The translations under genes and the position numbers were made by a program. A stretch of DNA of 64,000 bases from Bugula neritina (Eukaryota > Animalia > Bryozoa): assembly GCA_964035545.1 (NCBI GenBank), contig OZ037767.1:9868581-9932580 (forward strand). Reading direction: 5' to 3'. How positions within the stretch are numbered: position 1 is the first letter of the stretch; each line of letters opens with the position of its first letter. The notes beneath the pieces were generated by a model. That model had not been told where the DNA came from. It saw only the letters and a program-made list of their open reading frames with translations, and did no database searches. This document shows positions 20,434-50,988 of this stretch, piece after piece.

Positions 20434-20534
<101 letters not shown>

Positions 20535-20535
20535 C

Positions 20536-20584
20536 ATTGCTACTCTGAAGATGGGTACAGTGGTACCCGAAATATCAGTGTAAT
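20536..20584 (+). ncRNA. Minimal hammerhead ribozyme motif, family A, in a PLE terminal fragment within (TA)n
   Basis: TACT-CTGAAGA-T-GGGTAC(agtg)GTACCC-GAAATATC-AGTG. Stem III is reduced to palindromic ATAT. Fragment ~20531-20660 matches the PLE end at 37834-37952. Confidence 0.65.
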
Positions 20585-22909: not shown

Positions 22910-22982
<73 letters not shown>

Positions 22983-22983
22983 C

Positions 22984-23032
22984 ATTGCTACTCTGAAGAT
23001 GGGTACAGTGGTACCCGAAATATCAGTGTAAT
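22984..23032 (+). ncRNA. Minimal hammerhead ribozyme motif, family A (tandem unit 2)
   Basis: Identical to 20536-20584. Confidence 0.65.
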
Positions 23033-23116
23033 TACTTTACCTAATAAAGTAATAAATAACAATGTTTCTCGTATACCTATTTATAATCAAATTGCTAGCT
23101 CGTAAAGATATATTTA

Positions 23117-23147
<31 letters not shown>

Positions 23148-25403: not shown

Positions 25404-26217
25404 CTAGTAATAAATGCCATTATATTAATCAAATCTCATTTTACTTCTTCTAATGTTTATGCTCTAGATTTATTTCTATAGAGCACTCTAGTAACGTTTT
25501 GTGTACGAAACTACTAGTAATAAATGCCATTATATTAATCAAATCTCATTTTACTTCTTCTAATGTTTATGCTCTAGATTTATTTCTATAGAGCACTCTA
25601 GTAACGTTTTGTGTACGAAACTATTAGTAATAAATGCCATTATATTAATCAAATCTCATTTTACTTCTTCTAATGTTTATGCTCTAGATTTATTTCTATA
25701 GAGCACTCTAGTAACGTTTTGTGTACGAAACTACTAGTAATAAATGCCATTATATTTATCAAATCTCATTTTACTTCTTCTAATGTTTATGCTCTAGATT
25801 TATTTCTATAGAGCACTCTAGTAACGTTTTGTGTACGAAACTACTAGTAATAAATGCCATTATATTAATCAAATCTCATTTTACTTCTTCTAATGTTTAT
25901 GCTCTAGATTTATTTCTATAGAGCACTCTAGTAACGTTTTGTGTACGAAACTACTAGTAATAAATGCCATTATATTTATCAAATCTCATTTTACTTCTTC
26001 TAATGTTTATGCTCTAGATTTATTTCTATAGAGCACTCTAGTAACGTTTTGTGTACGAAACTACTAGTAATAAATGCCATTATATTAATCAAATCTCATT
26101 TTACTTCTTCTAATGTTTATGCTCTAGATTTATTTCTATAGAGCACTCTAGTAACGTTTTGTGTACGAAACTACTAGTAATAAATGCCATTATATTAATC
26201 AAATCTCATTTTACTTC

Positions 26218-26224
<7 letters not shown>
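25404..26224. repeat. 110-bp tandem array (~7.5 near-identical units) inserted in (TA)n of tandem unit 3
   Basis: Units recur at 25511, 25621, 25731, 25841, 25951, 26061 and 26171. Preceded by an inverted duplication of flanking sequence and followed by (TA)n. Confidence 0.95.
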
Positions 26225-26264
<40 letters not shown>

Positions 26265-28014
26265 TTATTATTATCACGTGTTCATCATTCACATAATGTG
26301 AAGGATGGAAACACAGTGATAATAATGCTTTCATGTTTATTGTCAGTAATAACATAATATACTTGTTATTACTATTAAGGTTTCATTATTTTATAAATCA
26401 TCAAAAAGCAAAAATTGTCTCGCATGGTTTTGTCACTATTGCACTGTGGACTGTAGCTAGTGCTAGTATGCATGTCCATGGCCCATGTAAAGCTTTTATA
26501 CTGTCAATAGATATGATTTCATGATTTATAGTTGTCAAAATATGTTGGTATGTTTCAAATTTGTGTGGTTACAATCTCAGCCGATCTTATATTTCTAGTT
26601 TATTTATTTAATAATATAGTATTCTTGCAGTTGTTATCTTTTTTGTTAAATTGAATAAGTTGTAGAAAATCGTCACATGGTTTACTAAATTGTTTATGTA
26701 ACATATAGCTGGTTTTATATAATAATATGCATTATGATAAAAAAGCATCAATTATATGGTAGATATTCTGTCTTTAAAAATTATATCAACAAAAACCATG
26801 CTCATTCACAAACCAACATTTTATATAAATAATTATTTTACTCTTTCCCGTAAAGCACGGTTATCTTCTATATACAAAACATCTAAGAAGTTTCCTAAAC
26901 AAAGAGATTAAAAGTTTGCTAATTTTACAACAATGTTGCAATTTTTATTTAGTTTGAAGTTGTTTTTTACCCTCATCAATTTTCCGTAGTAATTAGCTTT
27001 TTCTTGTTCTAATTTTGTGTGTGTTAATTTTAAAATTGTCTTATGTCAAGGGAGTAGTTTCCTTAGTTTTCTTTTGTAGGCAGTCAGTCTGAACAACATT
27101 TCAGGCTGCTCGAGCAGTTTAATATTAATTTGTTGTGGCCACTCGTTGACAATTGATTATTGTTTTTAATATTCGTCTGGACGAAGCTTTCCTGCTGTGG
27201 CGGTTGGTCTGTAACATAAATAATAAGCAAATAATTACATATGTGCTATCTAAAAATTTATTCGTGCAAATTTATAATTTGTATATGATGTCAATAAAAT
27301 ATAAACACTGTGAAATACACACTGTCAGGGCCAGCAAATATATATAATTGTAGTAGGTTTGGGGATCTACTCATGCTTCAACTATTTTCTTTGTGTGAAT
27401 GCCCTAACTGTTTTATTTACGTGAATGCCCAAGTTTTATTTGTCTGTTGTGAGTTCGATTTTAGAAGGTTCTGGGAGTCCCAGTGGAGATTCCGTCTACT
27501 ACTGGAGCTCGAGGACTATACTACTATTTTCAACTACTAAGGCAATTTATCAGAAATTTATTATTAATGTATCAACCATATGTGAGCAATATATCAGCAA
27601 TATGTCATCAATATTGATCTAAACATTAACTGTAATTATTGAATCAACATCCATATTAAGCTATTATTATCACTGATACTTTTACAAAATTACAACAGAA
27701 ACAAAATGTTATAATTACTTCCAAGTATCAAAGATGCTTGCATAACAATATGTTGGACCAACAGTGAGAATAAGATTATGCTAAAACCAAAGCCAAATAT
27801 AATCAATGTTTAAATTTAAATTTTCTACATGATAGGAACAGGTGACTTTTTCAACAATAACTTCTCAATGTTTATCTATTAAATGTTGGTTGCTAATAAC
27901 TAGCTTTACTATTTTTAATTCTTTAAAACTTGGTACAAAATAAAGACAACTCCAAAAGTAGAGGTGGAAGCATCAAGAAACTGGGTTGGAAATTTTGTGT
28001 CCAACTATCTAGGC

Positions 28015-29733
28015 CAGGGCTGTCCAAAAGGCGGCCCGGGGTCCGGATCCGGCCCTCCAGCTATATTTGTGTGGCCCCCCAAGGTATAGCAAGTTACAAA
28101 TTTTTTGTTTAAATCAAATTTGCTAACTAGCCTGAAACAGCAGCACAATTTCTATTAAAATGTAGTTTAGTTTCTTGTACAATATTGTTCTGTGGGTGGC
28201 ATGCGTGTTACCTACTTATTATTGTTTAGCCTGAGATCAAACTACAACCAATAACAGCAAGCTAGTCATTATAGCCTGTTAGCTAGCAAGCTTGTGACTT
28301 ACAATATGTAGACCCCTCTATTATATGCTCATCTCTACGCGTTTACTGAAGCGTGAAGTGATCCACAGTGCTTACTACTTAAAAAGAAATATACCATTTC
28401 CAGTATATAAATCCATAATTTACATAAAATCTAAGTCATTGCTTTTTTATTCAGATATCATGCTTTCTTGCTAAGTTATTTTACTGGTACTAAACAATCA
28501 ACTTTTCAGGCAAAATTAGCCGAAAATGTGCAGTTTTTTTTCTACAACTTTGCAAAAGAATGAAAAAATTCCAAAAAAGTTGCACTGGAAAAAAATAAGA
28601 TTCACACCATAGTTTTTAAATTTTGATTCTAGTAGCATACAATTAAATGAGATTTTTTTTACTGGTACTAAATTTTTACACAGTTACAATGCAAACCTGA
28701 GCAAGGCAGTTGCAGCTAAAAAGTTGCCCTTAGCTATCTTGTGCAGACAGATATTTCAAAGACATTTAATCAGGACAGGCCATATAGAGACAAGACTTTT
28801 TTGAAAGTATAACTGAGATCTCACTTTTATTGACTGTATTGTGAAAGATAAGTAGTTGAAGAATCTCTGGCACACTTCACTTATGCAGTACTAAAATATT
28901 CTTATGTATATTAGTTTTCATTTACATACTGTTTTAAGGTTAGGTGCCTAAACAATTTTGTTTTATAATGAATTTTGTACGAGTATGTACTGAAATGATT
29001 TGAGATTTCTGATCCCTTGACCTTTGACATTTGACCTTTGACTGTTAGGTACTATAAAACTTATACTATTTATAGCTAACTTTCATAGCATACTATTGTT
29101 AGATGCTGCACTGCACAGCACTATCACTGAGATGGCTTGAAGGTTTGAACTTTCAATTTTTAGTCAAATGAAATACACAAAAATAAATATCACACTTCAC
29201 TCACTAGTCAGCACTTAGTCCAGCAACTAAGGGTTATATGTTCTGATACGAAACCAGATATTAACAGAATTGTTCAAGGCAAACAATACTCACTGTGTAC
29301 TCACAAGTGTCTCACTGATTGTTGTAAAATATAACTATACCGCTATGAGTACAGACTCTTAGCACTGGCATATCTTGTTTAAATTTTGCATGAATATCAT
29401 GAATATTTACTTTGTATGTATATATGTATAATTTGGGTTTGGTTACAATTTTGTATTTATGTTTCTTGTTTACCTATTTTAATTAAATGCGTATACACAC
29501 ACATACACACACATACACACACATACACACACACATAAATATCGATTTAAATGTGTTATGGTTTTATTAAAAATGCAAAGCCTAACCATTGCTTATAATT
29601 ACAATACATATAGCCTGCAGATGCTCAATGAATCTTGAAAATTGATTTTTAAAAACAGAAAAAATGTTGTGGCCCTCGGCTCAAGCTGAAACTTGCAGAG
29701 TGGCCCTCGGTCTGAAAAGGTTGGACACCCCTG
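28015..29733. mobile_element. Non-autonomous hAT (Buster/Charlie-type) DNA transposon
   Basis: TIRs CAGGGCTGTCCAA / TTGGACACCCCTG, subterminal GGCCC motifs, 8-bp TSD ATCTAGGC. Empty site in the other units. No transposase ORF. Confidence 0.92.
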
Positions 29734-30209
29734 ATCTAGGCAGTGTCAGCATAATATCAATGCTTGTCTTTATTTAAACAACTGATAAATTTTGACGTTA
29801 GAAAGTCTATACACCAAAGATTATTGATTGTACAAATAAACGTCTGTTCTATCTTAATCTTTATCTTATCGTTATCTAGAATACAATCTAAAATGGCAGC
29901 AAGCGGATTTGCTTTATAGGTAAATAGTCAGACTCCCAGGCAGCTAAATAAAGATAACCATTGAATTTTTTGTGACAAGAAGTTTGACCCATACTACCTT
30001 AGGATTTTAAGTATTGCTAGTAATAATATAGTTTGAATAAATTCTAATTACCAATTAGTAACTTCATCAGGAAAGAATAAAAAGTAGCATTTTATTTCAT
30101 ATTTGATTTGTTTTAAAATAAAGCAAATTTATGCAAAGCATTTATCTTCAAAGTTTGAATGAAAATTAATAGATAGAATTTCAAGTAAAATATAATTATG
30201 TAATGTAGG

Positions 30210-30276
<67 letters not shown>

Positions 30277-30277
30277 C

Positions 30278-30326
30278 ATTGCTACTCTGAAGATGGGTAC
30301 AGTGGTACCCGAAATATCAGTGTAAT
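30278..30326 (+). ncRNA. Minimal hammerhead ribozyme motif, family A (tandem unit 4)
   Basis: Identical to 20536-20584. Confidence 0.65.
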
Positions 30327-30384
30327 TACTTTACCTAACAATGTTTCTCATATATCTATTTATAATCAAATTGCTAGCTCGTAA

Positions 30385-30500
<116 letters not shown>

Positions 30501-31311
30501 TTATTATCACGTGTTCATCATTCACATAATGTGAAGGATGGAAACGCAGTGATAATAATGCTTTCATGTTTATTGTCAGTAATAACATAATATACTTGTT
30601 ATTACTATTAAGGTGTCATTATTTTATAAATCATCAAAAAGCAAAAATTGTCTCGTATGGTTTTGTCACTATTGTACTGTGGACTGTAGCTAGTGCTAGT
30701 ATGCATGTCCATGGCTCATGTAAAGCTTTTATACTGTCAATAGATATGATTTCATGATTTATAGTTGTCAAAATATGTTGGTATATGTTTCAAATTTGTG
30801 TGGTTACAATCTTATATTTCTAGTTTAATTATTTAATAATAATATAGTATTCTTGCAGTTGTTATCTTTTTTGTTAAATTGAATAGGTTGTAGAAAATCG
30901 TCACATGGTTTACTAAATTGTTTATGTAACATATAGCTGGTTTTATATAATAATATGCATTATGATAAAAAAGCATCAATTATATGGTAGATATTCTGTC
31001 TTTAAAAATTATATCAACAAAAACCATGCTCATTCACAAACCAACATTTTATATAAATAATTATTTTACTCTTTCCCGTAAAGCACGGTTATCTTCTATA
31101 TACAAAACATCTAAGAAGTTTTCTAAACAAAGAGATTAAAAGTTTGCTAATTTTACAACAATGTTGCAATTTTTATTTAGTTTGAAGTTGTTTTTTACCC
31201 TCATCAATTTTCCGTAGTAATTAGCTTTTTCTTGTTCTAATTTTGTGTGTGTTAATTTTAGAATTGGCTTATGTCAAGAAAGTAGTTTCCTTAGTTTTCT
31301 TTTGTAGGCAG

Positions 31312-33301
31312 TCAGTCTGAACAACGTTTCAGGCTGCTCGAGCAGTTTAATATTAATTTGTTGTGGCCACTCGTTGACAATTGATTATTGTTTTTAATAT
31401 TCGTCTGGACGAAGCTTTCCTGCTGTGGCGGTTGGTCTGTAACATAATAATAAGCAAATAATTACATACGTGCTATTTAAAAATTTATTCGTGCAAATTT
31501 GTAATTTGTATGCGATGTCAATAAAATATAAACACTGTGAAATACACACTGTCAGGGCCAGCAAATATATATAATTGTAGTAGGTTTGGGGATCTAGTCA
31601 TGCTTCAACTATTTTCTTTGTGTGAATGCCCTAACTGTTTTATTTACACGAATGCCCAAGTTTTATTTGTCTGTTGTGAGTTCGATTTTAGAAGGTTCTG
31701 GGAGTCCCAGTGGAGATTCCGTCTACCACTGGAGCTCGAGGACTATACTACTATCTTCAACTACTAAGGCTGATTGTGCAAGACTACACTTGTCTCTCTT
31801 TTACTACAGGTGGACAAAAAGATATCAGCAACTGAAAATTCTTCTTCTCTCTAAATACAAAGAGGTTATGTTCTCCTAGCTAGGTTCCAATAACAGCCAG
31901 CAAGATCATCACAATAATATCAAGTAGTTCACAATCACAGTGTGAAACTCAACTTTGAGTTTAAAATCAAAGGCATTAATACAACCTTCGCTCTAACATA
32001 TATATATTACTTTAACAAAATTTTGACGTCAAATGAACAATCTGTTGTTGCCTGTACACGGGTAAGACATGTTTGAGCAACAAGGCAGCAGGGCGTACAG
32101 AAGCTAAGCTCCTTGTTGGTCACTGCTATATAAAACACTTGATACTTTGAAACAAAATAAATTGTAAATACCATTCACCATCTGCTGCTTGACGAGTTTT
32201 TGCGATTTCCTTAATCATTGCCCTGAGTTCTGCCATTTCTCCTTTGTGCTTGGCCTCCAGGTTTTCCATTTTTGTCTCCAATTTAAGCGTCACATCCCCT
32301 AGCTCTTGGCGATGTTGCAATTTAAGTTGCTGAACTTCTGCAGTCCATTTCATCATCTCAGTCTCGTGTTCATCTTTTAACTCTGCACGAACTTCGTCTT
32401 TCACAGCTTCTTTTTTACACATCCTTTGGTATTGGTATGGAGTTACATCTGCTGGGGCCTCTGCAAATTAAATTATTTAAATCTTATATAAAAGTTAAGC
32501 AATACAATTCATTTTTGTTGAAATCATGTAATGAGTTTTACATTTTTATTAAAACATAAATAGATTCATTTCATAGATGGCCTCGAAAGAAATATTACCA
32601 GGATTTATTGTTGCTAGGACATAATTACAAATCAAAAATTCTCTCATTGCATGCTAAAATATCATTGTTAACTGTTGAGGCATCAAAATTGTACCTGCAA
32701 AAGCATTTGTCCAAGTTTCAAAGGTTTTTGTAACTTTATTATTTGCTGCCAGGTTTACTGGATGTCGGTTCTTATTATTAGGAATACATAACAGCTCATT
32801 CAGCTGTTGAATAGCAAGACATTGAGATGTGAGGATGTATTCAATGAAATCAAAATGGCCATTAGCTGAAGCCAAATGGAGAGCTGTATAGCCTCCTGAA
32901 GTTGTTTTCTGTTTTAAGAGCTCAAACACCACACACCCGTCAGACACACCATCTATCAAAGCTCTTGCAGTGTATACGTCTCCCCTCTCTGCCATTATAT
33001 GAAAGAGAGACAGACCTTTGCTGTTTCGAATTATTAAGGCTTCAAGATGATTTCCAGGTGGGATACGGGCTATCATTTTCTTAACTGCATGAGCATTGCC
33101 AAGCCGTACTGTAATGTGCAGTAGAGTGTTACCATTTTTCCATTCACTTGTTAAAGTTTTAAAGACGTCGTTTGAATCAATTAAATCAATACGTTCAGTA
33201 AATTGCTCAAAGTCTCCTCTTAGCAGTGACCGAATTGGTTTCGGAAACCTTTGATCATTTAAATGAGAAACCAATCTTTCTCCTGGAGTAATAAGCTCCA
33301 T
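31312..33301 (-). CDS. Ankyrin-repeat protein with C-terminal coiled coil (~337 aa)
   Basis: Exon 32695-33301 has ANK motifs GNTLLHITVRLGN, GLSLFHIMAERGD and GYTALHLASANGHFDFIEYIL. Exon 32179-32460 is an E/K/Q-rich heptad region. Candidate last exon 31312-31436 is phase compatible but less certain. Confidence 0.8.
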
Positions 33302-33777
33302 CTTCTATAAAAAAAATTAATCATTCAAAAATTATCTAGAATCATAAAAGAAACATACTTTTATGAACAAATAAGCGGAAATTTGTCCACTTTATGCTTT
33401 GAGCTACAATACAATTGAAAATATGCAGTAAAATGCAAACTTAAATGAGCCACATGTTAAATAAATTAAATAATGAGAGGATATTAAATAAATTTATGTT
33501 AAAATGCTGTTTTCAAGCATTATAGTAAGTGTTTAAAGTAAGGTATATACTCATTCATAGCTTTTTTGTGGCAATAATTTAACATACCTGATTACTGATC
33601 TTTGCTAAAGATACTGCACTGCAAAGCAGAATACCTCAAAACTAGAGTGGGATCGGTTTTATATATATTATTGTTAGAGCATATTGTAGTTGCCTCCCTT
33701 ATACTGCCATCCTATTGGTTAGTTAACTTAGCATAACTATAGGTACCACCCATCAGATAGTTGAAATATAGCACTAT

Positions 33778-36815: not shown

Positions 36816-38040
<1,225 letters not shown>

Positions 38041-38162: not shown

Positions 38163-39325
38163 TGTATATATATATTATTGAGGAAAAGAGCAATTTAATT
38201 ATATAGATGTTGTTTTATTGCACTACTAATAGTTTCATGCCTCTTCGGCACTCCTCAGGCACAATATTGACGAATTTAAATTTTTACATCAAGAAAATCA
38301 AAATGCTAAACACAAGGTGAAACGTAACGAAGACATAGCAGTGGCTGTATTGTTATATAGGTTTGTAGGTGTAAATTAATATATAAAAAAACCATAATGT
38401 AATGTAAAAACACAATTTATAGCAGATGCATGAAGTTTTTGTTAGGTGACTATTCTCTCTGGGTATTTGGATATTATTTACTATAGCACATAAAATATAA
38501 ATAGGCTACAGAGTTTCTAGGTTTTGTGGTTGCACAGTAAGAATTTTTTGAGTGTCGGCAGGTTGATAAGATTTTTTTTCGCTTGTTTAAAGTACACATG
38601 TTAGGTTTGTATAAAATAAAGAAACATTCCCATAGGCATAAATTACACCTTTTGGTAGTTGTGTTGTATGGTTTCGCTTTTCTTAATATTTTCCAGCTTA
38701 TGTTGTGCTTAATGTTTTTGTTAGTTAGTTGCCAAATGTGTTTGCTAAGTTCTGTTTGATTTGCTTTCTCCTTGTTTTTAAATGATGATCTGTGGTTTGC
38801 GTATCTTAGTTTGAACGGTCCTTCACTTAGGCCAATGTATGTTGCAGGCTCGTTTTCGGTAGTTTCCACAGTTGCTTGGTATATAACTCTGCTCTCCTGA
38901 CAGTTTCCTTTCAGCGGACAACTTTCTTTTTCTCTACAGTTGCAGTTTTTTCTGGGGGTTTTGTTTTGTTGCTTCTGTTTCTCTAATAGTCTGTTATTGT
39001 GGCCATTTATGGTCTGTTTTATGTTTGGCATGCAGCTGTAGCTAACCTTTATATTGTTTTTGTTGATTATTTTATAGAGTGGGTGTTGTTTTGGAAATTC
39101 CTCATTCATGATTTTAAAGAAGATTTTTGCAATTCTTGTGGGTACATGTTGGCTGTATGGTGGATTGTACCAAACAACTTTTCTTTTTCGGTTTCGAGAC
39201 TTCTGTTGTGTGTTGTTTGTTTGGGTTCTTGGCAGGAATTGTAATTGATGTTTGTAGCCACTTTGGTTTAGGAGGTTTTGGTGGTTGTAGGTGGATTGTG
39301 TGAAAATTTTCTCGTTAGATGATAT

Positions 39326-39734
39326 TGTAGTGAATTTTGCCAGTTCACTATTATTATTTGTGGGTCTACTTAATCAAAGCCACTGCGACAGGTTGTTTAC
39401 AATAAGATACTTTATTATTTACACAAATACAAGAAGGTTATTTACTGCTAGCATGAATAGAAAACGATTACATAATTAGTGAGCTTTAATACACAACTGT
39501 TCTAAATGAAGTCCCAAGCTGCTCTGCCGGCTAGCTACTCAGCGCACTGCAACTACGAGTAGCTAGCTCCACCTGCTATCAATTAGTGTCACTGTCCTGA
39601 TTGGTGGCTACTAATGGTGCCACTACTGTCCATAGTTACACTCCGACAGTGTCGAACTCGCAAGATACATAAACAATATAGAGTAAACCTTTTCGATTAA
39701 CATAATAGGAATTGCACTACTAAAATCTATCACA
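39326..39734 (-). repeat. Gypsy 3' LTR
   Basis: Direct repeat of 46786-47194. Preceded on the minus strand by the polypurine tract AGGTGAGGAGAG (39735-39746). Confidence 0.96.
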
Positions 39735-39978
39735 CTCTCCTCACCTATCGAAAAGTACTCTCTAGACTTAATATTTACATGACAGTAACACACGAATACT
39801 AATGAAGGTAACATAGTGCTTTACAAAACTAGGGGTACAATTGAACAAGAGAAAATATATATACAGAGTAGATAGCATAAGTATAATAAATGAGTCTTCA
39901 CGCCGTAGTCCATAACACCTATTTACACTGCTTGACTAGCCAGGAGGGGGGGGGGTACATGTGTAGGTGGCCGCACCT

Positions 39979-41174
39979 CTAGCACTTCTTCGCCAGCCGT
40001 TTCTCTAGTCGGGTCTGCAACTTAGCCAGCTCGGTGGTTGCTCGCTTCTGTTCCTTACTGAGGCGAGCCATACGCCGTTGCACTTTCCTAATGTCGGCTA
40101 GTAGGGATTGGTCGGGGTCGCTGTCATCTCGGGGTGTGTTGCTAGCACCCCTCTTCTTCTTATGGGTGTGTCGGGGTACGTAGGAAATTGTCGTCGTTGG
40201 GGGTTGTGAGTCCTTCGTCACAGCGCGTCCAGCACGGGTTACTACGACGCGTAGAGGTTGGGTGGTTACGTCTGGAGGGTAGGTAGTCGTTGTTTCGGAG
40301 GGTTGGGGGTCTGCATCAGAGTCACTCTCCACTGTAGGTCGGGTAGCGGGGAAGTGGTCCAGGAGAGTCTGTCGTCGGTCCGGATCAGTCATGTGGGGTA
40401 GTATTAGGTCCCGGAACTCCGTGTAAGAGTCTGCGTCGACTTCATACAAGTGTCCTACGTAACAGTCTCTAGTCCGTTGGTGTCTCAGTATCGTGTCCCT
40501 GCAGAAGTGGTGGACTCCGCAGGGACAGAAAGTCACAGTAAAGTGTTGTGGAACGTGTATTCTCAGTCTCCTAGTAGTCGATAGTATTCTTCTACATTCA
40601 GTGCATTGTCTATTGTCGTCCGTCCCTACTATTGCTTCTATCAATGTTCGAGTCCGTCGAGTCGTCCAGTTAGTCCGTCCCAGTAAGGCCCTTGGTAGTG
40701 CTAGAGTAGTGTCCTTGGCTACAGTCAAGTCATCAGTCAAGTCGTTGGTATCAATTTGCATCGCAGTGTGTGTCGGGGAGTCCGTAAATGTTGCTAAATG
40801 TATGTCGGACAGCATGTCTACCCCTGCTTCTGACATGCTGTCCCAGTTAGTCGTAGGCGTGTCAAGTAATGCCTGTATCTCGTCGGATACAGGCTCAGTC
40901 TCACCTGCAATAGAGTATTAAATTTAATTACACTCTATGCGTGGGACTCCCGTTCCAAACAATATTAAATAATCGAGTCTCACTGTCACTCACTGATCGT
41001 GTAATCAGCTGAGTCGACTGTCCCACTCTAATTATCAATATCATTCGCTGTCAGGAGTTTCAACTTTATCATTATGACAAAGTGAGACTGCTGTCGCTAC
41101 CAGAATAAATTCTAATTAATTATTATAGAATTTCTAGTAGACTTACCCCCCAAAACAGTTGCTGCATTAGACAT
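39979..41174 (-). CDS. Gypsy ORF3: predicted two-exon protein (~317 aa) with two Cys/His finger-like motifs and a basic coiled-coil tail
   Basis: Main exon 39979-40904 is open, behind acceptor CTCTATTGCAG. Candidate exon 41147-41174 (MSNAATVLG) ends in G|GTAAGT in matching phase. CTEC-x12-HVPQH and CPC...HQR motifs; LLADIRKVQRRMARLSKEQKRATTELAKLQTRLEKRL. Confidence 0.7.
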
Positions 41175-41414
41175 AATGATGCTGCTGCTTTCTTAGGGCT
41201 CGTAGATAGCCAAATTATTTATTGCAAAAGACGTGCTGCCTGTTTGCTAGCTGTAATTGAAAAGAGCGCTCACAGCTAGAGTGCTTATGTAACACCCTAT
41301 ACGCTGTGATTTGGCTACGCTCTGCTGACCCCCGGCTGACCTATTCAATCCGCCACTGGGTCGCCTGCTATCAATTACCTCGCTCCCCCAGACTCCTTTG
41401 TGAATGTCGCCATG

Positions 41415-44400
41415 CTACAGAATACTGTGCATGTCGACCAAGTCACACAAGAAGTCTTTTAAATAAGATGGTGGCGCCCTGGTACGTTGGCTACGGTCCA
41501 ACGGTACCGGGGAGTTTGCTGCGACTGGCGACTCTTCCACCACGGGTGGTGTCGCCAGTACGGGGGGGTCCACCAGTACGGGTGGCCCTCCCCCAGCTGC
41601 CTCTCCCTCAGTATCTTGAGGAATTTCCATCTCATCCGGAACGATGGGCCTGTCGACCGGCTCCACAGGTGGTGGGGCCGGCTCCGACAGGTCTTCAGGT
41701 GTGTCGACCTCTTCTTCCTGGGGTGGAGGAGGTTGGGGCTGGTCGGCTGGCGCATCAGCCGCCCCGTCCTGGTCTGGCAGTATCTCCTCAATATCTCTAT
41801 ATGCCATGGGTCGCCCCCTCATAGGAGGGCGCCTAGCTGGCTCTAAGAGAGGAGGTGCTTGACCTGCCGCATCAGGACTTGCCCAGTGAGGTTTTAGCCG
41901 TGCCTCGTTCTGGACCGACACTTGTCCAGACCGTTCCACTTTGTATGTATGATTTGGCATTACCTCAATTACGCAGTAGGGACCTACGAACTTCGGCTGC
42001 AACTTGGCTGCCTGTCCGCGCCTGCGGCGATGACTGGTCATCCAGACCCAGTCCCCCACCTTGTATAAAGGTGGGTCGTCAGAGTCACCACTCCTGACCT
42101 GCCACTGCTGCTCACGTAGCACCTCGTGAGCCGTCCCCATGCGTTTTACGAGCTTGTCCACGTAGTCGTGGACATTGCTCTCTGGATTCGGAACATGATA
42201 GGTTACGTGCTCAGGAACCCTTGTTTCTCTCCCCGGCATGAGAAAATTAGGGGTCTCCAGTGTACTGGAGTGAGGGGTACTACGGTACGCTCGCATGATC
42301 TGCGGCAACACCAAGTCCCACTCTTCCTGGCTCCTACCGATAAGCAGGCTTCTCAGAAAGTCCCCTAGCATTCGGTTGTTCCGCTCCACGACCCCGTTCC
42401 CTTGCGGGTGATACGGGGTCGTCCGACTCTGGTTTACCCCCCACATTCTACAGAGATCGCTCATAAGTTGCGACTGAAACTGGGCGCCCTGGTCAGAGTG
42501 TATCTGCTCCGGCAAGCCGAAATAGCAGAACACCTGTTGATCCAGAGCTCTGGCCACCGAGGGGGCCGACGCATCTGGAATAGCCAGTGCATCAGCCCAC
42601 CGCGTGAAATGGTCAGTTAATACCAGTATCCAGTTATTACCTCTCGCTGTAGTGGGCATGGGGCCTACCAGATCGACAGCAACCACCTGCCACGGACGAC
42701 CGGCATGGAGGCGACGCCTCCCTGCGGTCTCAGTGGGGCGGCCATGCTTGCTAGCTTGGCACACCTCGCACTTCCGCACCCGGAGTCGGACATCCCGGGT
42801 CATACCGGGCCAAAACCACTGGAGTTGAAGACACCTGGTCACCCGGCTAGCTCCTGCGTGAGCTTGCTTATGGGTGTCCCAGATCAACTCCCGCCGCAGA
42901 GCTGACGGGCAGACTACCCTCTCTCGTTCACTGCGATTGGTGCCGACTGCCAACGTGATCGTTAGCAGCCCATCGCTGTTGAACCTTAGGGAGTCCCAGC
43001 GGTCACAGAAGTACTTAAACTCAGTACTCTTCACTCGCTGTTCGGCCTCACCTGGCCGCCGTCCCTCCTTCTTGGCCCGGACTAGGTCAGCTACCACTCC
43101 TGGTAGCGTGGACTGGAGCCGACATAGCTCCCTGACGTTCCGAAGCAACGTGGGGTTTGCGTGAAGGTTGTTAACAGCTTTGTTGGGTGATTCGGACAGG
43201 AGTTGCCCTTCTTCCCAGCTGTACACACCCGCTTTCCCCAACTGCGCTTCGACGCCCGAGCGAGGGGGTCCACCGTCCATGCGCTCGATATTCTGGCATT
43301 GCTTACACCCATCTGCCTGGCGGCGGCTGAGTCCATCTGCATTACCGTGTTTCTTACCGGGTCGATGTTCGATCCGATAAGAAAACTCTGCCAGGATCTT
43401 TAGCCAGCGCGCCACTTGGCTGGATGGTTCTGCCCGTCGACACAGCCATATCAGGGACGCATGATCCGTCCGAAGCCGGAATGTGCGCCCATATAGATAT
43501 GGTCTAAAGTGTTTGACCGCCTTGACTACTGCCAAGAGTTCCCTCCTGGTTGCACAGTAGTTCTTCTCAGGCGCCGACAGGGCCTTGCTATAGTAAGCTA
43601 CCACCACCTCGCGACCATCTTGGACCTGCGATAGCACAGCCCCCACATTATGGTTACTGGCATCAGTATCCAAAATGTACTCCTTCGCAGGGTCAGGATA
43701 CGCCAAGATGGGTGCCTCCACCAGGCGATCCTTCAGGTGGTCAAATGCCTTCTGCTCAGCCTGCGTCCACTGCCATCGCACCCCCTTTGCGGTCAGCCGA
43801 TTTAACGGCTGTGCAATTCCTGCGAAGTCTGGTATGTACTGACGATAGTACCCAACCAGCCCCAGGAATGCCCGCAATTCAGAGAGGTCGACAGGAACGG
43901 CCCAGTCCTTCACGGCCCGTACCTTCTCAGGGTCGGTGGCGACCCCGTCTCGACCAACTACATGGCCCAGGTACTTGACCTCGCGTTGCAGTAATGCACA
44001 CTTCGAGGGCTTCAGCTTCAGGTTAGCAGCTCGGAGTCTGTCGAACACCTCCCTGAGTCGACTGACATGTGTGTCGAAGTCGGGGGAGATGACGATGACA
44101 TCATCGAGATATATGAGCAAGGTCTTCCAGTGCAGTCCACTCAGGACCTGCTCCATGAGTCGCTGGAAGGCGGCTGGTGCGGACGTAAGTCCGAATGGCA
44201 ACACCTTCCATTTCCAGAGCCCATCCCGCGTTATAAACGCGGCCTTGTCCTGTGCTTCAGGACTCAGGGGCACCTGCCAATACCCGCTTAACAAGTCCAA
44301 CGTGCTGAAGAACTTGCTACCAGCTAAGGCATCGATCCTCGAGAGAAGGTAAGCGTCCTGGATGGTCACGCTGTTCAGCCTGCGATAATCAACGCAAAAC

Positions 44401-45860
44401 CTCCAGCTACCATCCTTTTTCCGAACCAGGACGACTGGAGAACTCCAGGCCCCATGGCCTGGCTCAATCAGGTCCCGGTTCAGAAGGTCTTGCACCTGAC
44501 GGCTCACTTCTCTCTCCTTCTCAGGACCTAACCGGCGGGTCGGCTGCCGAATCGGCACCGTCCCCGCCGCCAGGGGTATCTCATGACGAACCGTCTCAGT
44601 CAGACCCATGTCATGGTCGCCGCAACTGAACACATCCTTGTACTCAGAGAGTAGCCGCGCCATCTCCAGGCGTTCTCGCTTGCTCTCACAGCCATCACAG
44701 GCATCCTCGTACAACTCTGCTACGTGTTCAGGCACCGGCCCCCTGCCGTCTCTAGTGGGTACTCCCCGGGCACCGTCCGCTGTTTCCAGCGCGGGCCCTA
44801 CATCCTCCTCTTGCACGGAGTGGAACTTCCCTACTAGAGACCCAGCCGGTAATTCTACCGGCTCCGTGAAAGGGTTTACGCACTGGACCAGGAACTCCCT
44901 CCGCTCATCCAGTCTATTCAGACTGTTAGCGAGCTGGACGCCCCCCAGTGCACCTTCCACCACTCCGAGTTCGAAGATCTCCCTACAGTTCACTCTGCAG
45001 CGAACTGTAGCCCGGGAGCGCCCAGGTACAGTACAGCGCTGTACCACCTGCACTCCCCCCACCAAGGGTCGGCCAAATCGGTCGACACAGGCCAGCTCAC
45101 GCCCCGCCATCACTACTGCCGACTTGCTAAAGTCGATGTAGCACCTGTGTCGCTTCAGAAATGGCATGCCCAAGATGGCATCCTCCTTGAGTTGACTGAC
45201 GATGAAGGTCTCACTGATCATCTGATCACGGACTCTACCAGTCAACTGGATTACCCCATAGAAAGGAATACACGACCCGTCCGCCAACGTGCCGTGTTCC
45301 CCCTCATATGGTTCTAGGCTAGCCCTGTCCTTGGCACTGAGAGTGTCGAAGAGACGTCGACTCAGTAGATTTGTGGTACACCTAGTATCCAACAGGAATG
45401 TGGCAGCTTTACCAGCAATTTTGCCGGGGAGGAAATAGCTGCTTCCATATGGCTGGGCGCTCACTGAGTGATTTGTCTCTTGAGGCGACACCTCATGTGC
45501 ATGGAATTGGGGATGCACCTGTGCTTTTCGGTTGCGAGGGGGTCGTCGACGTTGCATGGGCGGGCAGGGTACGTCTCGGTCTCGCTCACACACGGACGGC
45601 CGAGTGAATTCTCGGACTGATGCTCGTGTGGGCAACCGAGGAAAATCCCTGTTGTGCTCCCATTCGTCGTTCACTCCCTCATCAAGCAAACCTTCAAAGC
45701 GGTTTTTGAGTGCCCAAGCCGGAGGTATTGGTGGGCCTTGCGGCCGACTCACTCTCCTTGGGGCTTGCCACTCTGGCGAAGGCGGCCTCCTCACCCGATG
45801 GGGTGGGGGCCGTAGCCTTTGTCTTGGGGGGGTTAAACTGGGGCCCACGGTAGGCGGAAG
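41415..45860 (-). CDS. pol: Gypsy Pol (protease, RT, RNase H, integrase), with lesions
   Basis: LLDTRC (protease site), WRFCVDYRRLN, LPFGLTSAP, YLDD, LDTDAS, TDHASL, HKQAH..CEVC, DLVGP, HSDQG, VERNNR, KFVGPY. Confidence 0.96.
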   Translation of the reverse strand, partial: LPPTVGPSLTPPRQRLRPPPHRVRRPPSPEWQAPRRVSRPQGPPIPPAWALKNRFEGLLDEGVNDEWEHNRDFPRLPTRASVREFTRPSVCERDRDVPCPPMQRRRPPRNRKAQVHPQFHAHEVSPQETNHSVSAQPYGSSYFLPGKIAGKAATFLLDTRCTTNLLSRRLFDTLSAKDRASLEPYEGEHGTLADGSCIPFYGVIQLTGRVRDQMISETFIVSQLKEDAILGMPFLKRHRCYIDFSKSAVVMAGRELACVDRFGRPLVGGVQVVQRCTVPGRSRATVRCRVNCREIFELGVVEGALGGVQLANSLNRLDERREFLVQCVNPFTEPVELPAGSLVGKFHSVQEEDVGPALETADGARGVPTRDGRGPVPEHVAELYEDACDGCESKRERLEMARLLSEYKDVFSCGDHDMGLTETVRHEIPLAAGTVPIRQPTRRLGPEKEREVSRQVQDLLNRDLIEPGHGAWSSPVVLVRKKDGSWRFCVDYRRLNSVTIQDAYLLSRIDALAGSKFFSTLDLLSGYWQVPLSPEAQDKAAFITRDGLWKWKVLPFGLTSAPAAFQRLMEQVLSGLHWKTLLIYLDDVIVISPDFDTHVSRLREVFDRLRAANLKLKPSKCALLQREVKYLGHVVGRDGVATDPEKVRAVKDWAVPVDLSELRAFLGLVGYYRQYIPDFAGIAQPLNRLTAKGVRWQWTQAEQKAFDHLKDRLVEAPILAYPDPAKEYILDTDASNHNVGAVLSQVQDGREVVVAYYSKALSAPEKNYCATRRELLAVVKAVKHFRPYLYGRTFRLRTDHASLIWLCRRAEPSSQVARWLKILAEFSYRIEHRPGKKHGNADGLSRRQADGCKQCQNIERMDGGPPRSGVEAQLGKAGVYSWEEGQLLSESPNKAVNNLHANPTLLRNVRELCRLQSTLPGVVADLVRAKKEGRRPGEAEQRVKSTEFKYFCDRWDSLRFNSDGLLTITLAVGTNRSERERVVCPSALRRELIWDTHKQAHAGASRVTRCLQLQWFWPGMTRDVRLRVRKCEVCQASKHGRPTETAGRRRLHAGRPWQVVAVDLVGPMPTTARGNNWILVLTDHFTRWADALAIPDASAPSVARALDQQVFCYFGLPEQIHSDQGAQFQSQLMSDLCRMWGVNQSRTTPYHPQGNGVVERNNRMLGDFLRSLLIGRSQEEWDLVLPQIMRAYRSTPHSSTLETPNFLMPGRETRVPEHVTYHVPNPESNVHDYVDKLVKRMGTAHEVLREQQWQVRSGDSDDPPLYKVGDWVWMTSHRRRRGQAAKLQPKFVGPYCVIEVMPNHTYKVERSGQVSVQNEARLKPHWASPDAAGQAPPLLEPARRPPMRGRPMAYRDIEEILPDQDGAADAPADQPQPPPPQEEEVDTPEDLSEPAPPPVEPVDRPIVPDEMEIPQDTEGEAAGGGPPVLVDPPVLATPPVVEESPVAANSPVPLDRSQRTRAPPSYLKDFLCDLVDMHSIL

Positions 45861-46730
45861 TTACCGTGGGCCGTCGCTGTTTAACCGCCTCCCACTGCCG
45901 CGGGGGCAACTTCGTAGGAAGTGCCCACCACTACCACAGCCCCAGCATACGGGGCCGCGCCTGTCGGCGACAGCTACCGACGACCTCTTGGGTCTCTCGG
46001 CTGTCGCCTGCTGGCGCAGTTGCCTGAACTCGGCGAGCAGTTCTCGAATCAAGCTCGTGGTTAAGCTAGATTCGTCTGCTGCTGCCGCTGCGACTTGTAC
46101 AGCTGTCTTCGTTGACGACGTCGACACGTCGTCTGCCCCGACTTGCTGTACTGTCGCGCCAGGTCGACTTGCACTGTCGGCTTGGAAATAGGCATTCCCA
46201 AGCCTTAGAGCTCTCTCCATAGTCTCAACTTTGGCCACCAGCAGATGCTGTTTAAGACCGAGGTTGTTAATAGACTGGAGGAATGCATCCAGTGCTAGGC
46301 TCTGTCGACCATCGGCAGGCAAGTCGCTGTAAGCAACTTGTGCCAGTCGTTCGACTACGGTAGCGTGCTCTCGCAGATTGGTCTTAGGATTTCTCCTAAG
46401 ACTCTGCAGTTGCACGCGAGCATCTCGAGCGGTTAATCCAAACCTAGCTCGTATTGCTTCAAATATGTCACCGACATTCTGGCTTAACCCATAGGGTTTA
46501 GCCGGCCCTGTCAGACACAACCGCAGCTGGATCAGAGTAACCCTGTTCGGCCATCCGCAAATGTCCGCCACATCACTGAACTCAGTGATGAATTGCTCCA
46601 CATCTTCTTCTCCAGAGAAGGTGGGAGCCCGCAAGTGGTACCTGTCCATAGGCAGCGCTTGGCCGCCTATGTGATCCTCCTCCATTGCTGCTGGCTCCTG
46701 TCGGGGCGCGTCGACGACTTCGTCGGCCAT
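45861..46730 (-). CDS. gag: Gypsy Gag with CCHC zinc knuckle
   Basis: 289 aa ORF just after the PBS; PTFSGEEDVEQFI; CWGCGSGGHFLRSC. Confidence 0.92.
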   Translation of the reverse strand: MADEVVDAPRQEPAAMEEDHIGGQALPMDRYHLRAPTFSGEEDVEQFITEFSDVADICGWPNRVTLIQLRLCLTGPAKPYGLSQNVGDIFEAIRARFGLTARDARVQLQSLRRNPKTNLREHATVVERLAQVAYSDLPADGRQSLALDAFLQSINNLGLKQHLLVAKVETMERALRLGNAYFQADSASRPGATVQQVGADDVSTSSTKTAVQVAAAAADESSLTTSLIRELLAEFRQLRQQATAERPKRSSVAVADRRGPVCWGCGSGGHFLRSCPRGSGRRLNSDGPR

Positions 46731-46766
46731 CTTACTTCCTGACTAGGGGCATTTGTATTAAGTGAG

Positions 46767-46784
46767 ATCCCACCGCTGCCACCA
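46767..46784 (-). other. Primer-binding site, tRNA-Leu type
   Basis: TGGTGGCAGCGGTGGGAT, 1 nt inside the 5' LTR boundary. Complementary to the ..ATCCCACCGCTGCCACCA 3' end of metazoan tRNA-Leu. Confidence 0.85.
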
Positions 46785-46785
46785 G

Positions 46786-47194
46786 TGTAGTGAATTTTGC
46801 CAGTTCACTATTATTATTTGTGGGTCTACTTAATCAAAGCCACTGCGACAGGTTGTTTACGATAAGATACTTTATTATTTACACAAATACAAGAAGGTTA
46901 TTTACTGCTAGCATGAATAGAAAACGATTACATAATTAGTGAGCTTTAATACACAACTGTTCTAAATGAAGTCCCAAGCTGCTCTGCCGGCTAGCTACTC
47001 AGCGCACTGCAACTACGAGTAGCTAGCTCCACCTGCTATCAATTAGTGTCACTGTCCTGATTGGTGGCTACTAATGGTGCCACTACTGTCCATAGTTACA
47101 CTCCGACAGTGTCGAACTCGCAAGATACATAAACAATATAGAGTAAACCTTTTCGATTAACATAATAGGAATTGCACTACTAAAATCTATCACA
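46786..47194 (-). repeat. Gypsy 5' LTR
   Basis: Direct repeat of 39326-39734. Followed on the minus strand by the PBS. Confidence 0.96.
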
Positions 47195-48208
47195 ATATTG
47201 ACAACAGTCGTTTATTAACGGACGAGGGTAGGTTGGAGATTATGCTTGCTGGGTGGTTGGATTTGTTATGAATATATTTAGTAGAATTGTTTGGCTTAGT
47301 GTATGGTGTGTAGGTTTTATTGTTTAGGTTGAGCGTGGTGTCTAAGAAGTTAATAATTTTTTTATTTGCTTCGATTGTTATTTTTAATCCATTTTCAGAA
47401 AATATTTTGCAGATGTCCGTTTTTATGTTCTCTATTTCTCTGGGTGTTTTGTCGGAGACTCCTAAGCCGTCATCCCTGTACAGGCCGAAGTTTTTGCCAT
47501 GTTTAAATGTTATTGAGTTTAAAATGTACGCCCCAACAAGTTCGCATGTTTCTGTGCCGTCGTATCCTCCCATTGTAACGTCGAAGAGGTTGTGGTTATG
47601 TTTTCTCCATGCCTTTCCAGAGTTGAAGAGTAGTGAATTTTTGGCATGTATAATTATTTCTCTTTCATCTTCGCTAATTGTATCAAATTCCGATGCAAAA
47701 GTTAGAGCGTTTTCAAGTAGGTTTTTTGAAATTGAAGGGTAAAAGTTTATGACGTCAAATGAAATAAATGTCTGTTGATGTTTGTTGTTAATTCCTTCAA
47801 ACCATTTTATTACATCAGTGGTGTTTTTCCATTGGTTTAGGTGTGTGTTTGTGAGAATTTTGTTATTTATTCGGTCTAATATTTTCTTACTAATCTTTCC
47901 TATCTCTGGTTTGCAGGGGTTTATGAGGCGGCAACTTGGTTTATTTGTAAAATTGTCCTTGTGATCTTTCAGTGTGATGAAAGCTTCTTGCTCACTAGTT
48001 GTAGTGACTCTGTCCATAAGGTCTAGTTTGTTGACAATTTGGTTTGTTTTAGTTTTGATTTTGTCTATTGTGTGTTTGCTTACCTTTTTGTATGTCTTGG
48101 TGATGCTGTCTTGGAGCATTTTGTTGTACAGGTGTGTATCCATTTTGTAGAAGTTGTTAGTTTTATCGGATGGTACTAAAAGAGTAGTTGAGTTTTTAAT
48201 TTTGTTTC

Positions 48209-48270
<62 letters not shown>

Positions 48271-48278
<8 letters not shown>

Positions 48279-49539
48279 GTATACGAGAAACATTGTTATT
48301 TATTACTTTATTAGGTAAATCAACATCAAGTATCTGAAGATAAGCTTGAAGTAATTAAAGGTAAACTCTTAGACACGTACTCCAAATTTATAAAGATTAA
48401 GATGCCAAAATATTTTGATGATGCTCTAAAGAAATTGAAAAATAATAAGGATATCTCATTAATTAAACAAGACAAAGGAAAAGGTACTGTTGTCATGAAT
48501 AAGAAGGATTACATCAACAAATGTTTAGAAATACTAAATACACCAAAATTTTCAATATGTTCCACAGATCCAACAAAAACTATTGAAAATCGAATACAAT
48601 TAGAATTGCGTAGTATCAAAAAACATTTTTCTGACACTGACTATAAAAGGATATATCCAACAGGTTCAGCACCTGGGAAATTTTACGGGATGGCCAAAAT
48701 ACACAAACTCAAACAAGGAGATGGTATAGAGAAGCTACAAATGCGACCAATAATTTCTAACATAGGGACTGCATCATACCAACTTGCGAAATACCTGACC
48801 AAAATGCTATAACCACTTAGTGAATCTGAAAGTAATATCGAATCAACCGATAGTTTTCTTACATATATACGGCAACTTCATATTCCAGCAAACCATCAAC
48901 TGATATCATTCGATGTTGTTTCCCTCTTTACTTCTGTACCACTTGACTACACGATTTCAGCAATCATAAATGATATTTATGAGAAACAACGAATCCAAAC
49001 AACTATACCAAAGAAGAAAATGATAAACTTACTCAACCTTTGTACAAAACAAGTTCACTTTACTTTCAACGACATCATTTATACACAGACGGATGGTGTT
49101 GCTATGGGATCTCCTCTAGGACCAATAATTGCGAATATATTCATGACAAAACTAGAACAGAAAGTAATACCAAAGTTGAATTCAATGTCACCTTGGGTGA
49201 GATACATAGATGACACATTTGCAACAATAGACCCTGAGTATATTAACACAACACTCAACACACTTAATAATTTTCATCCTAACATAAAATTTACTCACGA
49301 ACTAGAAACCAATAAATCACTTTCTTTTCTGGATGTTACTGTTTTGCGACACAATAGCTCAGTGGAAACCACAGTATTCTGCAAACCAACACATAACGAT
49401 ACATACTTACATTGGAACTCTTTCTCACTAAAAACGTGGAAGCTAAGCACACTCAAGTCACTAGTATTAAGGGCTAATAAAATCTGTTCTACTCCAGCAC
49501 TTAAGACCCAAGAACTAAACTATATTCGAAATGTTTTTG

Positions 49540-49543
<4 letters not shown>
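48271..49543 (+). mobile_element. PLE RT fragment (Penelope/Poseidon-type) preceded by an inverted family A pLTR piece
   Basis: QDKGKGTVVM, FYGMAKIHK, MRPIISNIGT, SFDVVSLFTSVP, QTDGVAMGSPLGP, RYIDDT, LSFLDV. One frame with a single premature TAA at 48810-48812. 48271-48319 is the reverse complement of the family A end. Cut off at (TA)n. Confidence 0.92.
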
Positions 49544-49609
<66 letters not shown>

Positions 49610-49614
49610 CTATA

Positions 49615-50988
49615 GGAGTAACGGGGGGGGGGGGGGGACACAACGGGCAGAATTTTGAATTTTTTGCTCTCATTTGTCTGTTTTTCAAGTTACTAGTTCA
49701 ATAATCATCTAGTCTGAACGCTGCTTCTGTTGTCTATTACAGGTACCAATTTGTTGTTTCTATCTTTCTCACAACTTTCAGAATAATGAAATTTTTATGA
49801 CGAAAAAATCGACCCATTGTGCCCCGGTATACCGGGGTACAATGGGCCACTAGGTGGGACACAACAAATATATGGAAACTTTGCTAATTTTGTTGCATCT
49901 GATCTTCATTTATTTAATTTTACAAATAAATAAACAAATTCTTTCAGATCTACAGCGAAATTCATGTTTTAGCTGTACAGTTTGTGCCACCACCGCGGAT
50001 AATAGGGGAAGGCAAAATGAAACATACATCACTCATTTCTACAGTACCATTTTCATTACTGTTTAGAACTAAAAATGTTCTTCTATTTTCACTTTACAGG
50101 AACTTTCATCAGAAAAGACTTTAGTAACATGTACTACTTAAAATTCCGAGTGAACTTTTTTCTATGAACTGTAGTTAAGGTGCATGGCTGCTGTTTGTAA
50201 CTGGAGTACGGAAGGGAGAGAGGGAGGAAATGGGCAAATCGCAATTTAGTTTAGTCAAATACATGTATATTCCATCAATGATATAATATATAATTATTAT
50301 CATGACTATCCACTAGTAGCAACAGCGGAGTGTTTTGTATTATATATAAAATGGCAATTAGCTATAACCTCACCAGATGTATATATTAGGGGAGCTTCAC
50401 CTTGTAGTTTTGTAGTCTTACCATGATGTCTTTGATATTTTACGAAAAGGTCATAAATAGCTATATCTATAGACTTTAGTAACATTTTAACCAACTTTTT
50501 GGGCAAGCAAACTAATAAAAGTGATCAAGGTGCAAAAATCAAATGGCCCATTGTGCCCCGGTCAGCGTGGCTCATTGTGCCCCGGTCAGCGTGGCCCATT
50601 GTGCCCCGTGTGGCCAAATTGAACATAAATGTGACTCAAGGAAAACTAATTTTAGAGTTTGCTGTTATACTAGTTAGGCAACGTAGAGACAAGCAAAGGC
50701 AACAATATCAGTAAAATCTAGGCTTGTTACTTTTGAGTGTAAAAAGTTATAAAGCTTTAACAATATCTTAAAATATTTACTAAAAGTAGGAAAAAACAGT
50801 TTTTACTCGCCTCTTCAACATGTATGCTCCGCAAGTGTTGAAACTACAATGGCTGAATAATTATGTCAATACCTTTTTATTAAAAAAAAAAATCACAATT
50901 TTAAGTCAATAAGTTCTGTCACAGTTTTGCCGGCTTTTTTGTACCCCTATGACCGTTGTGCCCCCCCCCCCCCCCCCCCCGTTACCCC
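49615..50988. mobile_element. Non-autonomous TIR DNA transposon flanked by TA (Tc1/mariner-pogo-like)
   Basis: Ends GGAGTAAC(G)nACACAACGG and CCGTTGTG(C)nGTTACCCC. Internal repeats of CCCATTGTGCCCCG at ~49813 and three times at 50547-50609. No transposase. Confidence 0.8.

Follow-up and report, generated by a model that had tools for sequence, protein, structure and literature searches.

A Ty3/Gypsy retrotransposon of the bryozoan Bugula neritina carries, besides gag and pol, a real, selected and spliced accessory gene from a zinc-finger family that we did not find described. We analyzed a 64,000-nucleotide stretch of contig OZ037767.1 (the window), and we refer to the additional gene as ORF3. 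It lies between pol and the polypurine tract on the sense strand of the element, and its spliced product has 317 amino acids. The initial annotation had proposed a selected, spliced, non-env third gene at this place, and this proposal is supported by intron-less sister copies, by purifying selection, and by links to Gypsy pol in two relatives. From its architecture, we infer that ORF3 is a nuclear accessory factor.

The Gypsy element and the ORF3 gene model

The element (39326-47194, minus strand, as are all of its parts) is complete and young. It has the features of a Ty3/Gypsy element: paired LTRs of 409 nucleotides that start with TG and end with CA (the 5' LTR at 46786..47194 and the 3' LTR at 39326..39734, identical at 408 of 409 positions), a short target duplication (ATAT), a primer binding site at 46767..46784 (which we take to be of the tRNA-Leu type), a polypurine tract at 39735..39746, and gag followed by pol. 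The gag gene is at 45861..46730, with a CCHC zinc knuckle at the gag end, and in the pol ORF (41415..45860) the protease domain comes first, followed by reverse transcriptase (RT), RNase H, and finally integrase. The empty insertion site is present in contigs of the sequencing run X1, which looks like a DNA run, as judged by its size and by this empty-site joint. Among the listed differences that are nearly fixed between pol of this copy and pol of its sisters, 19 of 24 are non-synonymous, so pol of this copy is probably defective. The frame of its gag-pol junction is also unlike that of some sisters. That pol (41415-45860) diverges mainly non-synonymously from most sisters despite the near-identical LTRs suggests a defective lineage that was copied in trans.

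The Gypsy element is nested in another element, which we take to be Penelope-like from its motifs (it has no Pfam match). The RT part of the disrupted element lies upstream (47195-48299) and an endonuclease-like part lies downstream (38474-39325, minus strand). Elsewhere, the window contains a unit of ~2.5 kb in four tandem copies that are 97-100% identical (19643-31745), a 110-nt minisatellite within that region (25292-26361), an ankyrin-repeat exon (32654-33304, minus strand), a GIY-YIG fragment between 251-nt inverted repeats (36888-38012), and a second Penelope-type RT fragment (48813-49658, plus strand).

The ORF3 gene model consists of a 28-nt exon with the ATG (41147..41174, supported by the sequence and by intron-less joins), a 242-nt GT-AG intron (40905..41146, GTAAGT...TTGCAG), and a 926-nt second exon (39979..40904). 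Every coordinate in the initial annotation was correct, as were the AT-rich intron and the in-phase join: the GC content is 35.5% in the intron versus 53% in exon 2. Scored with an approximate splice matrix, the donor is 3rd among the 487 GT sites in the element and the acceptor is 5th among the 631 AG sites. None of 2,000 base shuffles of exon 2 yielded an ORF of 307 codons. We rejected the idea that ORF3 is an env gene: the highest mean hydropathy over 19 residues is 0.74, which agrees with the initial judgment that a transmembrane helix is absent, a search against Pfam found no family, and there was no viral fold match at E ≤ 0.001.

Selection on ORF3 and removal of its intron

ORF3 is under purifying selection among element copies. 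Among sisters, 27 listed differences fall in the 5' part of exon 2; 16 of these are synonymous, versus 24.6% expected (pN/pS ~0.22, P = 1e-4; the listing gave 40 of the 66 differences over the stretch). Also, of the 11 indels listed among sisters, seven are in the intron, four are in the spacer that precedes exon 1, and none are in the 373 coding bases (P = 0.002). In the initial annotation, a ratio near 1 across copies was to tell against the gene, and the ratio among the listed sister differences speaks for it.

The evidence for splicing comes from DNA. Among the 155 X1 contigs that aligned to 40560-41440, two depart from the window's sequence exactly at the ORF3 donor. Where they continue past the donor, they agree with the start of exon 2 in 24 of 30 positions with no gaps (counted by eye; chance ~2e-8). 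Independently, a relative (P0014) has an N terminus in which the peptides of exon 1 and exon 2 are fused in frame; this is the one such case among the relatives' proteins that we examined. These precise intron-less DNA copies show indirectly that the intron is removed at the predicted sites, and precise loss is what would be expected of the reverse transcription of a spliced RNA. Three other relatives (P0008, P0010, and P0023) extend back into sequence that resembles the acceptor flank of the window. In a tree of the clade, P0023 branches earliest and P0014 is nested beside P0008, so the intron appears to be ancestral in the ORF3 clade and to have been lost precisely in some copies. Intron-bearing sister copies dominate, as the depth of X1 contigs over the intron is about that over the exons. 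The separate unspliced and spliced RNAs that the initial annotation had envisaged are thus implied, but the separation would be leaky, with intron-less DNA copies beside the more common intron-bearing ones.

Exon 1 begins 240 nt behind the stop codon of pol, so the ORF3 RNA would have to be spliced from the LTR leader or else start internally. Upstream there is a single good acceptor, a candidate at 41251 that ranks 3rd of the 631 AG sites, and it is altered in 13 sister contigs that make up over half of the sister depth. We rejected an HIV-like double splice from a donor in the LTR leader (46735) to this acceptor because its AG is altered in those contigs, and the alteration favors an internal start. 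The non-coding spacer (41175..41414) would then be a candidate internal promoter or 5' leader of ORF3. It contains a 14-nt word (41364..41377) that is identical to a word in U3 of the LTRs (47032-47045 and 39572-39585); a shared word was found in 2 of 1,000 shuffles and in 0 of 119 other tiles. This would fit shared promoter elements. That reading is weakened by two minority sister variants inside the 14-mer, and the 14-mer includes homeodomain- and GATA-like words, so it may presumably serve host factors.

The intron is predicted to form several hairpins, one of which is over the acceptor region. Compared to shuffled sequences, it folds with a z score of -8.1 on the sense strand and -4.7 on the antisense strand, and the fold includes 10 G-U pairs. 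The fold is not unique within the element: against same-size tiles, the intron ranks just 7th of 63 (z = -5.8), and gag and the end of pol fold equally well. A search of Rfam with the intron gave no match at a meaningful score. More broadly, strong predicted structure is found in gag, the end of pol, the spacer, and the intron (40905-41630 and 45745-46591, minus strand; tile z scores down to -6.5) and is missing from exon 2, the 3' UTR, and the LTR (39326-40780; z of about -1.4 to +2.9). In other words, the folded parts are specific to the unspliced RNA and the unfolded part is the shared 3' part. Another observation is that exon 2 (39982-40902, minus strand) contains 22 copies of GACT versus 10.6 ± 2.3 in codon shuffles that preserve the protein (0/500), and its density of DRACH words is 40 per kb versus 18 in gag and pol (14/500). 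These excesses could possibly reflect m6A sites or a hidden repeat.

The ORF3 protein and its family

From the N terminus, the protein has an acidic and poorly ordered region (40696..40904, net charge -14), tandem fingers (40462..40605) of which the first is C2H2 and the second is CxC-x12-H-x5-C, a basic patch that is a candidate nuclear localization signal (40147..40167, limits approximate), and a C-terminal coiled-coil helix in the structural model (39982..40116). The elements of the protein that had been noticed initially are all present: CTEC-x12-H-x3-H, the HKKKR patch, the terminal helix or coil (pLDDT of about 97), and the second motif, which reads CPC-x12-H and is completed by a cysteine five residues on. 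With an acidic N terminus, two fingers, a basic patch, and a coiled coil, the sequence is arranged like that of a dimeric transcription factor, and we predict that the product is a nuclear, DNA-binding, and likely dimeric zinc-finger protein.

Much of this layout is conserved. The N-terminal region is net acidic in all 40 relatives in which it comprises 39 residues or more, as well as in 20 of 27 distant relatives, and most of the full-length relatives carry the basic patch and the terminal coil. By sequence rules for activation domains, 5 of 40 N termini pass a strict rule and 18 of 40 pass a looser one; ORF3 of the window passes the looser rule only. A leucine-rich pattern that resembles a nuclear export signal (NES) is present in the acidic N terminus of the window's ORF3 and of many relatives, but the pattern is loose.

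Finger 1 fits the C-x2-C-x12-H-x3-H pattern of classical C2H2 fingers and its ligands are conserved. Finger 2 (CxC-x12-H-x5-C/H) is unlike classical C2H2, and the pair is not a tandem of one finger type. In 48 of 48 distant matches, the linker between the fingers has a fixed length of five residues and is non-canonical (relative to the consensus of classical linkers). In classical fingers, positions +2 and +6 of the helix contact bases. Finger 2 retains aspartate at +2 in 42 of 45 sequences and arginine or lysine at +6 in 41 of 45, and the residue at +6 of finger 1 is hydrophobic.

The structural model of full-length ORF3 was poor (pLDDT 62), and Foldseek found nothing at E ≤ 0.001 with it. 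A model of the ORF3 core reached a pLDDT of 79 (two of five models) and also gave no Foldseek match at E ≤ 0.001 (E ≥ 0.67). When the finger pair of the core was overlaid on known structures, it matched consecutive fingers of DNA-bound C2H2 proteins, and the top 11 rows were all such complexes. These overlays are weak (rmsd 2.3-4.0 Å over 50-57 residues, Z of 3.0-3.6), and any tandem finger would match these structures. The best match in sequence between the ORF3 profile and PDB was to the fingers of SALL3 (E = 0.0015).

Our first search identified 33 relatives of ORF3 and a profile search identified 68. At E ≤ 0.001 there were 285 representatives, whose tail takes in ordinary multi-finger proteins, and at 1e-10 there were 132. 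Of 67 relatives, 45 span all eight ligand positions and 36 of those keep all eight; the scattered losses are as in decaying copies. Among 19 distant relatives, the zinc ligands are 97% conserved versus 41% for the other columns of the fingers, and the tandem motif with the five-residue linker is found in 48 of 135 new profile matches. Matches of the relatives to zf-C2H2_4 are mostly below the curated cutoff; P0092 is above it. A search of the protein-cluster Atlas with ORF3 returned unnamed clusters and C2H2 leads only. Within the clade of ORF3 itself, identities range over 50-70%, and P0008, P0010, and P0023 share its acceptor flank.

In two relatives, the ORF3 module seems to be tied to Gypsy pol independently, although one of these ties is weak. 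In the first (P0204/P0208), the module shares an ORF with a Gypsy protease that is 36-38% identical to the window's (E = 4e-39). This ORF has 1,145-1,208 amino acids and no RT, RNase H, or integrase, and the finger module is near its end; it is perhaps a non-autonomous element with a protease and a regulator. In the second (P0044), a motif like the tail of an integrase lies upstream of the ORF3 homolog and in the same frame (weak; pairwise E = 0.025). A word search for long fused forms (987-2,815 amino acids) found none among 1,934 candidates, which is weak evidence. Also, we did not find ORF3 loci in collections of metagenomes, viruses, or prokaryotes. With the integrase as the query, we found two distant loci, which gave no match to ORF3 (they had no usable downstream DNA), and none in viral contigs.

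Where a relative of ORF3 has a name, it is from a bryozoan (4 of 20 clusters looked up in one set and 0 of 7 in another). Of five proteins with one or two copies of the module (P0072, P0092, P0176, P0215, and P0218), one is unnamed and the others are gene models from Watersipora subatra or Bugula neritina. Three of these (P0176, P0215, and P0218) have a further N-terminal segment in common (by eye), and by locus tag, two of the gene models are adjacent in the Bugula assembly. Because of these gene models, their shared N-terminal part, and the adjacent pair, a host family with the ORF3 module seems to exist. A tree of the finger modules fits transfer in either direction between elements and host genes.

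Possible functions of ORF3

Our preferred reading, which we hold tentatively and rate a little short of evenly balanced, is that ORF3 is a DNA-binding transactivator expressed from an internal promoter, as is Tas of foamy viruses. Selection on ORF3, which sits within an intact element, is purifying, and the intron-less DNA copies are indirect evidence that splicing takes out its 242-nt intron at the predicted positions. Beyond this, ORF3 would be expressed from a short spliced RNA that begins at an internal promoter downstream of pol. The full-length RNA would usually retain the intron, aided by the hairpins that cover the acceptor, and the occasional splicing of packaged RNA would give rise to the intron-less copies. 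The two fingers would read a DNA site, the coiled coil would dimerize the protein, and the basic patch would import it into the nucleus. The acidic N terminus would bring the transcription machinery of the host to both the LTR and the internal promoter, which would form a feed-forward switch like that of Tas. This reading is suggested by the family-wide conservation of the architecture, the conserved ligands, the overlays of the core model on DNA-bound C2H2 fingers, the residues kept at +2 and +6 of finger 2, the 14-mer shared with the LTR, and the altered acceptor at 41251. It is weakened because the structural overlays are weak (Z of 3-3.6) and because C2H2 fingers also bind RNA and proteins, as well as by the 5 of 40 N termini that pass the strict activation-domain rule, the hydrophobic residue at +6 of finger 1, and the non-canonical linker.

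Tas (Bel1) is described as being expressed from an internal promoter and as activating both that promoter and the LTR (PMC13220597). In both systems, the accessory gene follows the structural genes and precedes the 3' LTR. The likeness also includes an internal promoter (which we propose for ORF3), DNA-binding and acidic activation domains (candidates only in ORF3), and splicing within the accessory region. On the other hand, the foamy virus is a retrovirus with env, the activation domain of Tas is C-terminal, and the unspliced form of Tas is the activator (PMC13220597). The likeness is in layout only, with no sequence relationship shown.

The main alternative, and rather an unlikely one in our judgment, is that ORF3 acts on RNA like Rev or like CERV of Cer1: it would bind a structured element of the intron-containing genomic RNA and either license its nuclear export or block its splicing. 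The element must export RNA that retains a functional intron, and this intron folds far beyond its shuffles and more strongly in the sense direction. The folded intron would be missing from ORF3's own mRNA, and the RRE of HIV is likewise absent from the rev mRNA. The NES-like pattern would also suit an exporter, but it is loose and the same motif suits an acidic activation domain. Other regions of the element fold as well as the intron does, Rfam gave no meaningful match, and the long acidic N terminus and the host-gene relatives with the same module better suit a transcription factor. The closest precedent for an exporter is CERV, a nuclear protein of Cer1, which is a Ty3/Gypsy element of C. 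elegans; CERV is translated from a spliced RNA and is required for the export of the genomic RNA (PMC10309623). Both are extra proteins made from spliced RNAs of an animal Gypsy element, both are nuclear (predicted for ORF3), and both have a cysteine-rich finger, a candidate basic nuclear localization signal (KRKK in CERV), and a coiled coil (a leucine zipper in CERV); furthermore, in both elements the genomic RNA keeps usable splice sites. However, CERV has 517 amino acids, five exons (including exons shared with gag), a C4-type loop, and a G-protein-like domain, and it is reported there to have no homologs outside nematodes (PMC10309623). ORF3 lies behind pol, has its own ATG exon and tandem C2H2/CCHC fingers, and shares no exons with gag, and its model has no H, M, or G-protein-like domain.

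We also consider it unlikely that ORF3 works in chromatin without classical transactivation, with its fingers binding the DNA of the element or the host so as to shield the element from silencing or to steer its integration. The integrase-tail-like motif in frame with the P0044 homolog (at the weak pairwise E of 0.025) would fit such a role, as would the module in one ORF with a Gypsy protease in P0204/P0208, since it may travel in a polyprotein as a targeting domain would. But the word search turned up no fused form of 987-2,815 amino acids (weak), P0204 has no RT, RNase H, or integrase, and in the window's lineage ORF3 is separate and spliced. It is quite improbable that ORF3 is a zinc-finger gene captured from the host and carried as a passenger, with any function either benefiting the host or being incidental for the element. 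The bryozoan gene models with this module, of which three have an N-terminal part in common and two are neighbors in Bugula, do point to a host family, and the normal spliceosomal intron suggests an origin as a gene. However, selection among the element copies is purifying, with none of the 11 indels in coding sequence, and the same acceptor flank is found across a clade with 50-70% identity; the gene was therefore apparently retained over many cycles of reverse transcription, in which an unneeded intron would have been lost. Finally, it is extremely improbable that only the long exon is real, with the short exon and the intron unused and translation starting at an internal methionine of exon 2. 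Gene callers do place the starts of most of the relatives at an internal methionine or valine, but the precise joins of exon 1 to exon 2 in two X1 contigs and in P0014, and the sparing of exon 1 by indels, argue against this.

That a Gypsy element has a non-env third ORF is less unusual than the initial annotation had held, given the ORF3s of rotifer elements (PMC5408684) and the regulator of Cer1 (PMC10309623). In bdelloid rotifers, ORF3s are described that are likewise on the sense strand, between pol and the 3' LTR, family-specific, and non-env, but these are of GDSL esterase, DEDDy exonuclease, transmembrane, or coiled-coil types, and neither "zinc" nor "intron" is mentioned in the paper (PMC5408684). 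The MDG1 group in Drosophila has sORF1 and sORF2, which are also non-env accessory ORFs of an animal Gypsy (sORF1 is predicted to be helix-turn-helix), but they are short and mostly upstream of gag, and sORF2 is a transmembrane, fusogen-like protein (PMC11952523). Accessory domains are described for the Burro elements of planarians (PMC6431247). "Zinc finger" and "spliced" do not occur in the available text of a survey of env-carrying invertebrate Gypsy elements (PMC13524379), and the available parts of PMC6338049 and PMC8556966 contain nothing relevant to a zinc-finger ORF3. Overall, full-text searches of the open literature gave no sense-strand, intron-containing zinc-finger ORF3; subscription journals, Repbase entries, and supplements may describe one.

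Complex retroviruses are typified by regulators of transcription or RNA export that they encode themselves. In the literature that we searched, there is one worked-out case from an animal LTR retrotransposon, CERV, and ORF3, with its transcription-factor-like protein, would be a second and unrelated solution. The double zinc-finger module, which has no name and is common to the elements and to bryozoan gene models, would be a case of capture or domestication. Because the sense intron of ORF3 survives reverse transcription in most copies and is lost in some, the element offers a testable system for how LTR elements regulate their expression and select the RNA that they package. More speculatively, and with rather more doubt than confidence, this clade of invertebrate Gypsy elements may be "complex" in the retroviral sense, with its own sequence-specific zinc-finger transcription factor, an internal promoter, a regulated spliced RNA, a sense intron that is kept by folding, and a module that has been exchanged with host genes.
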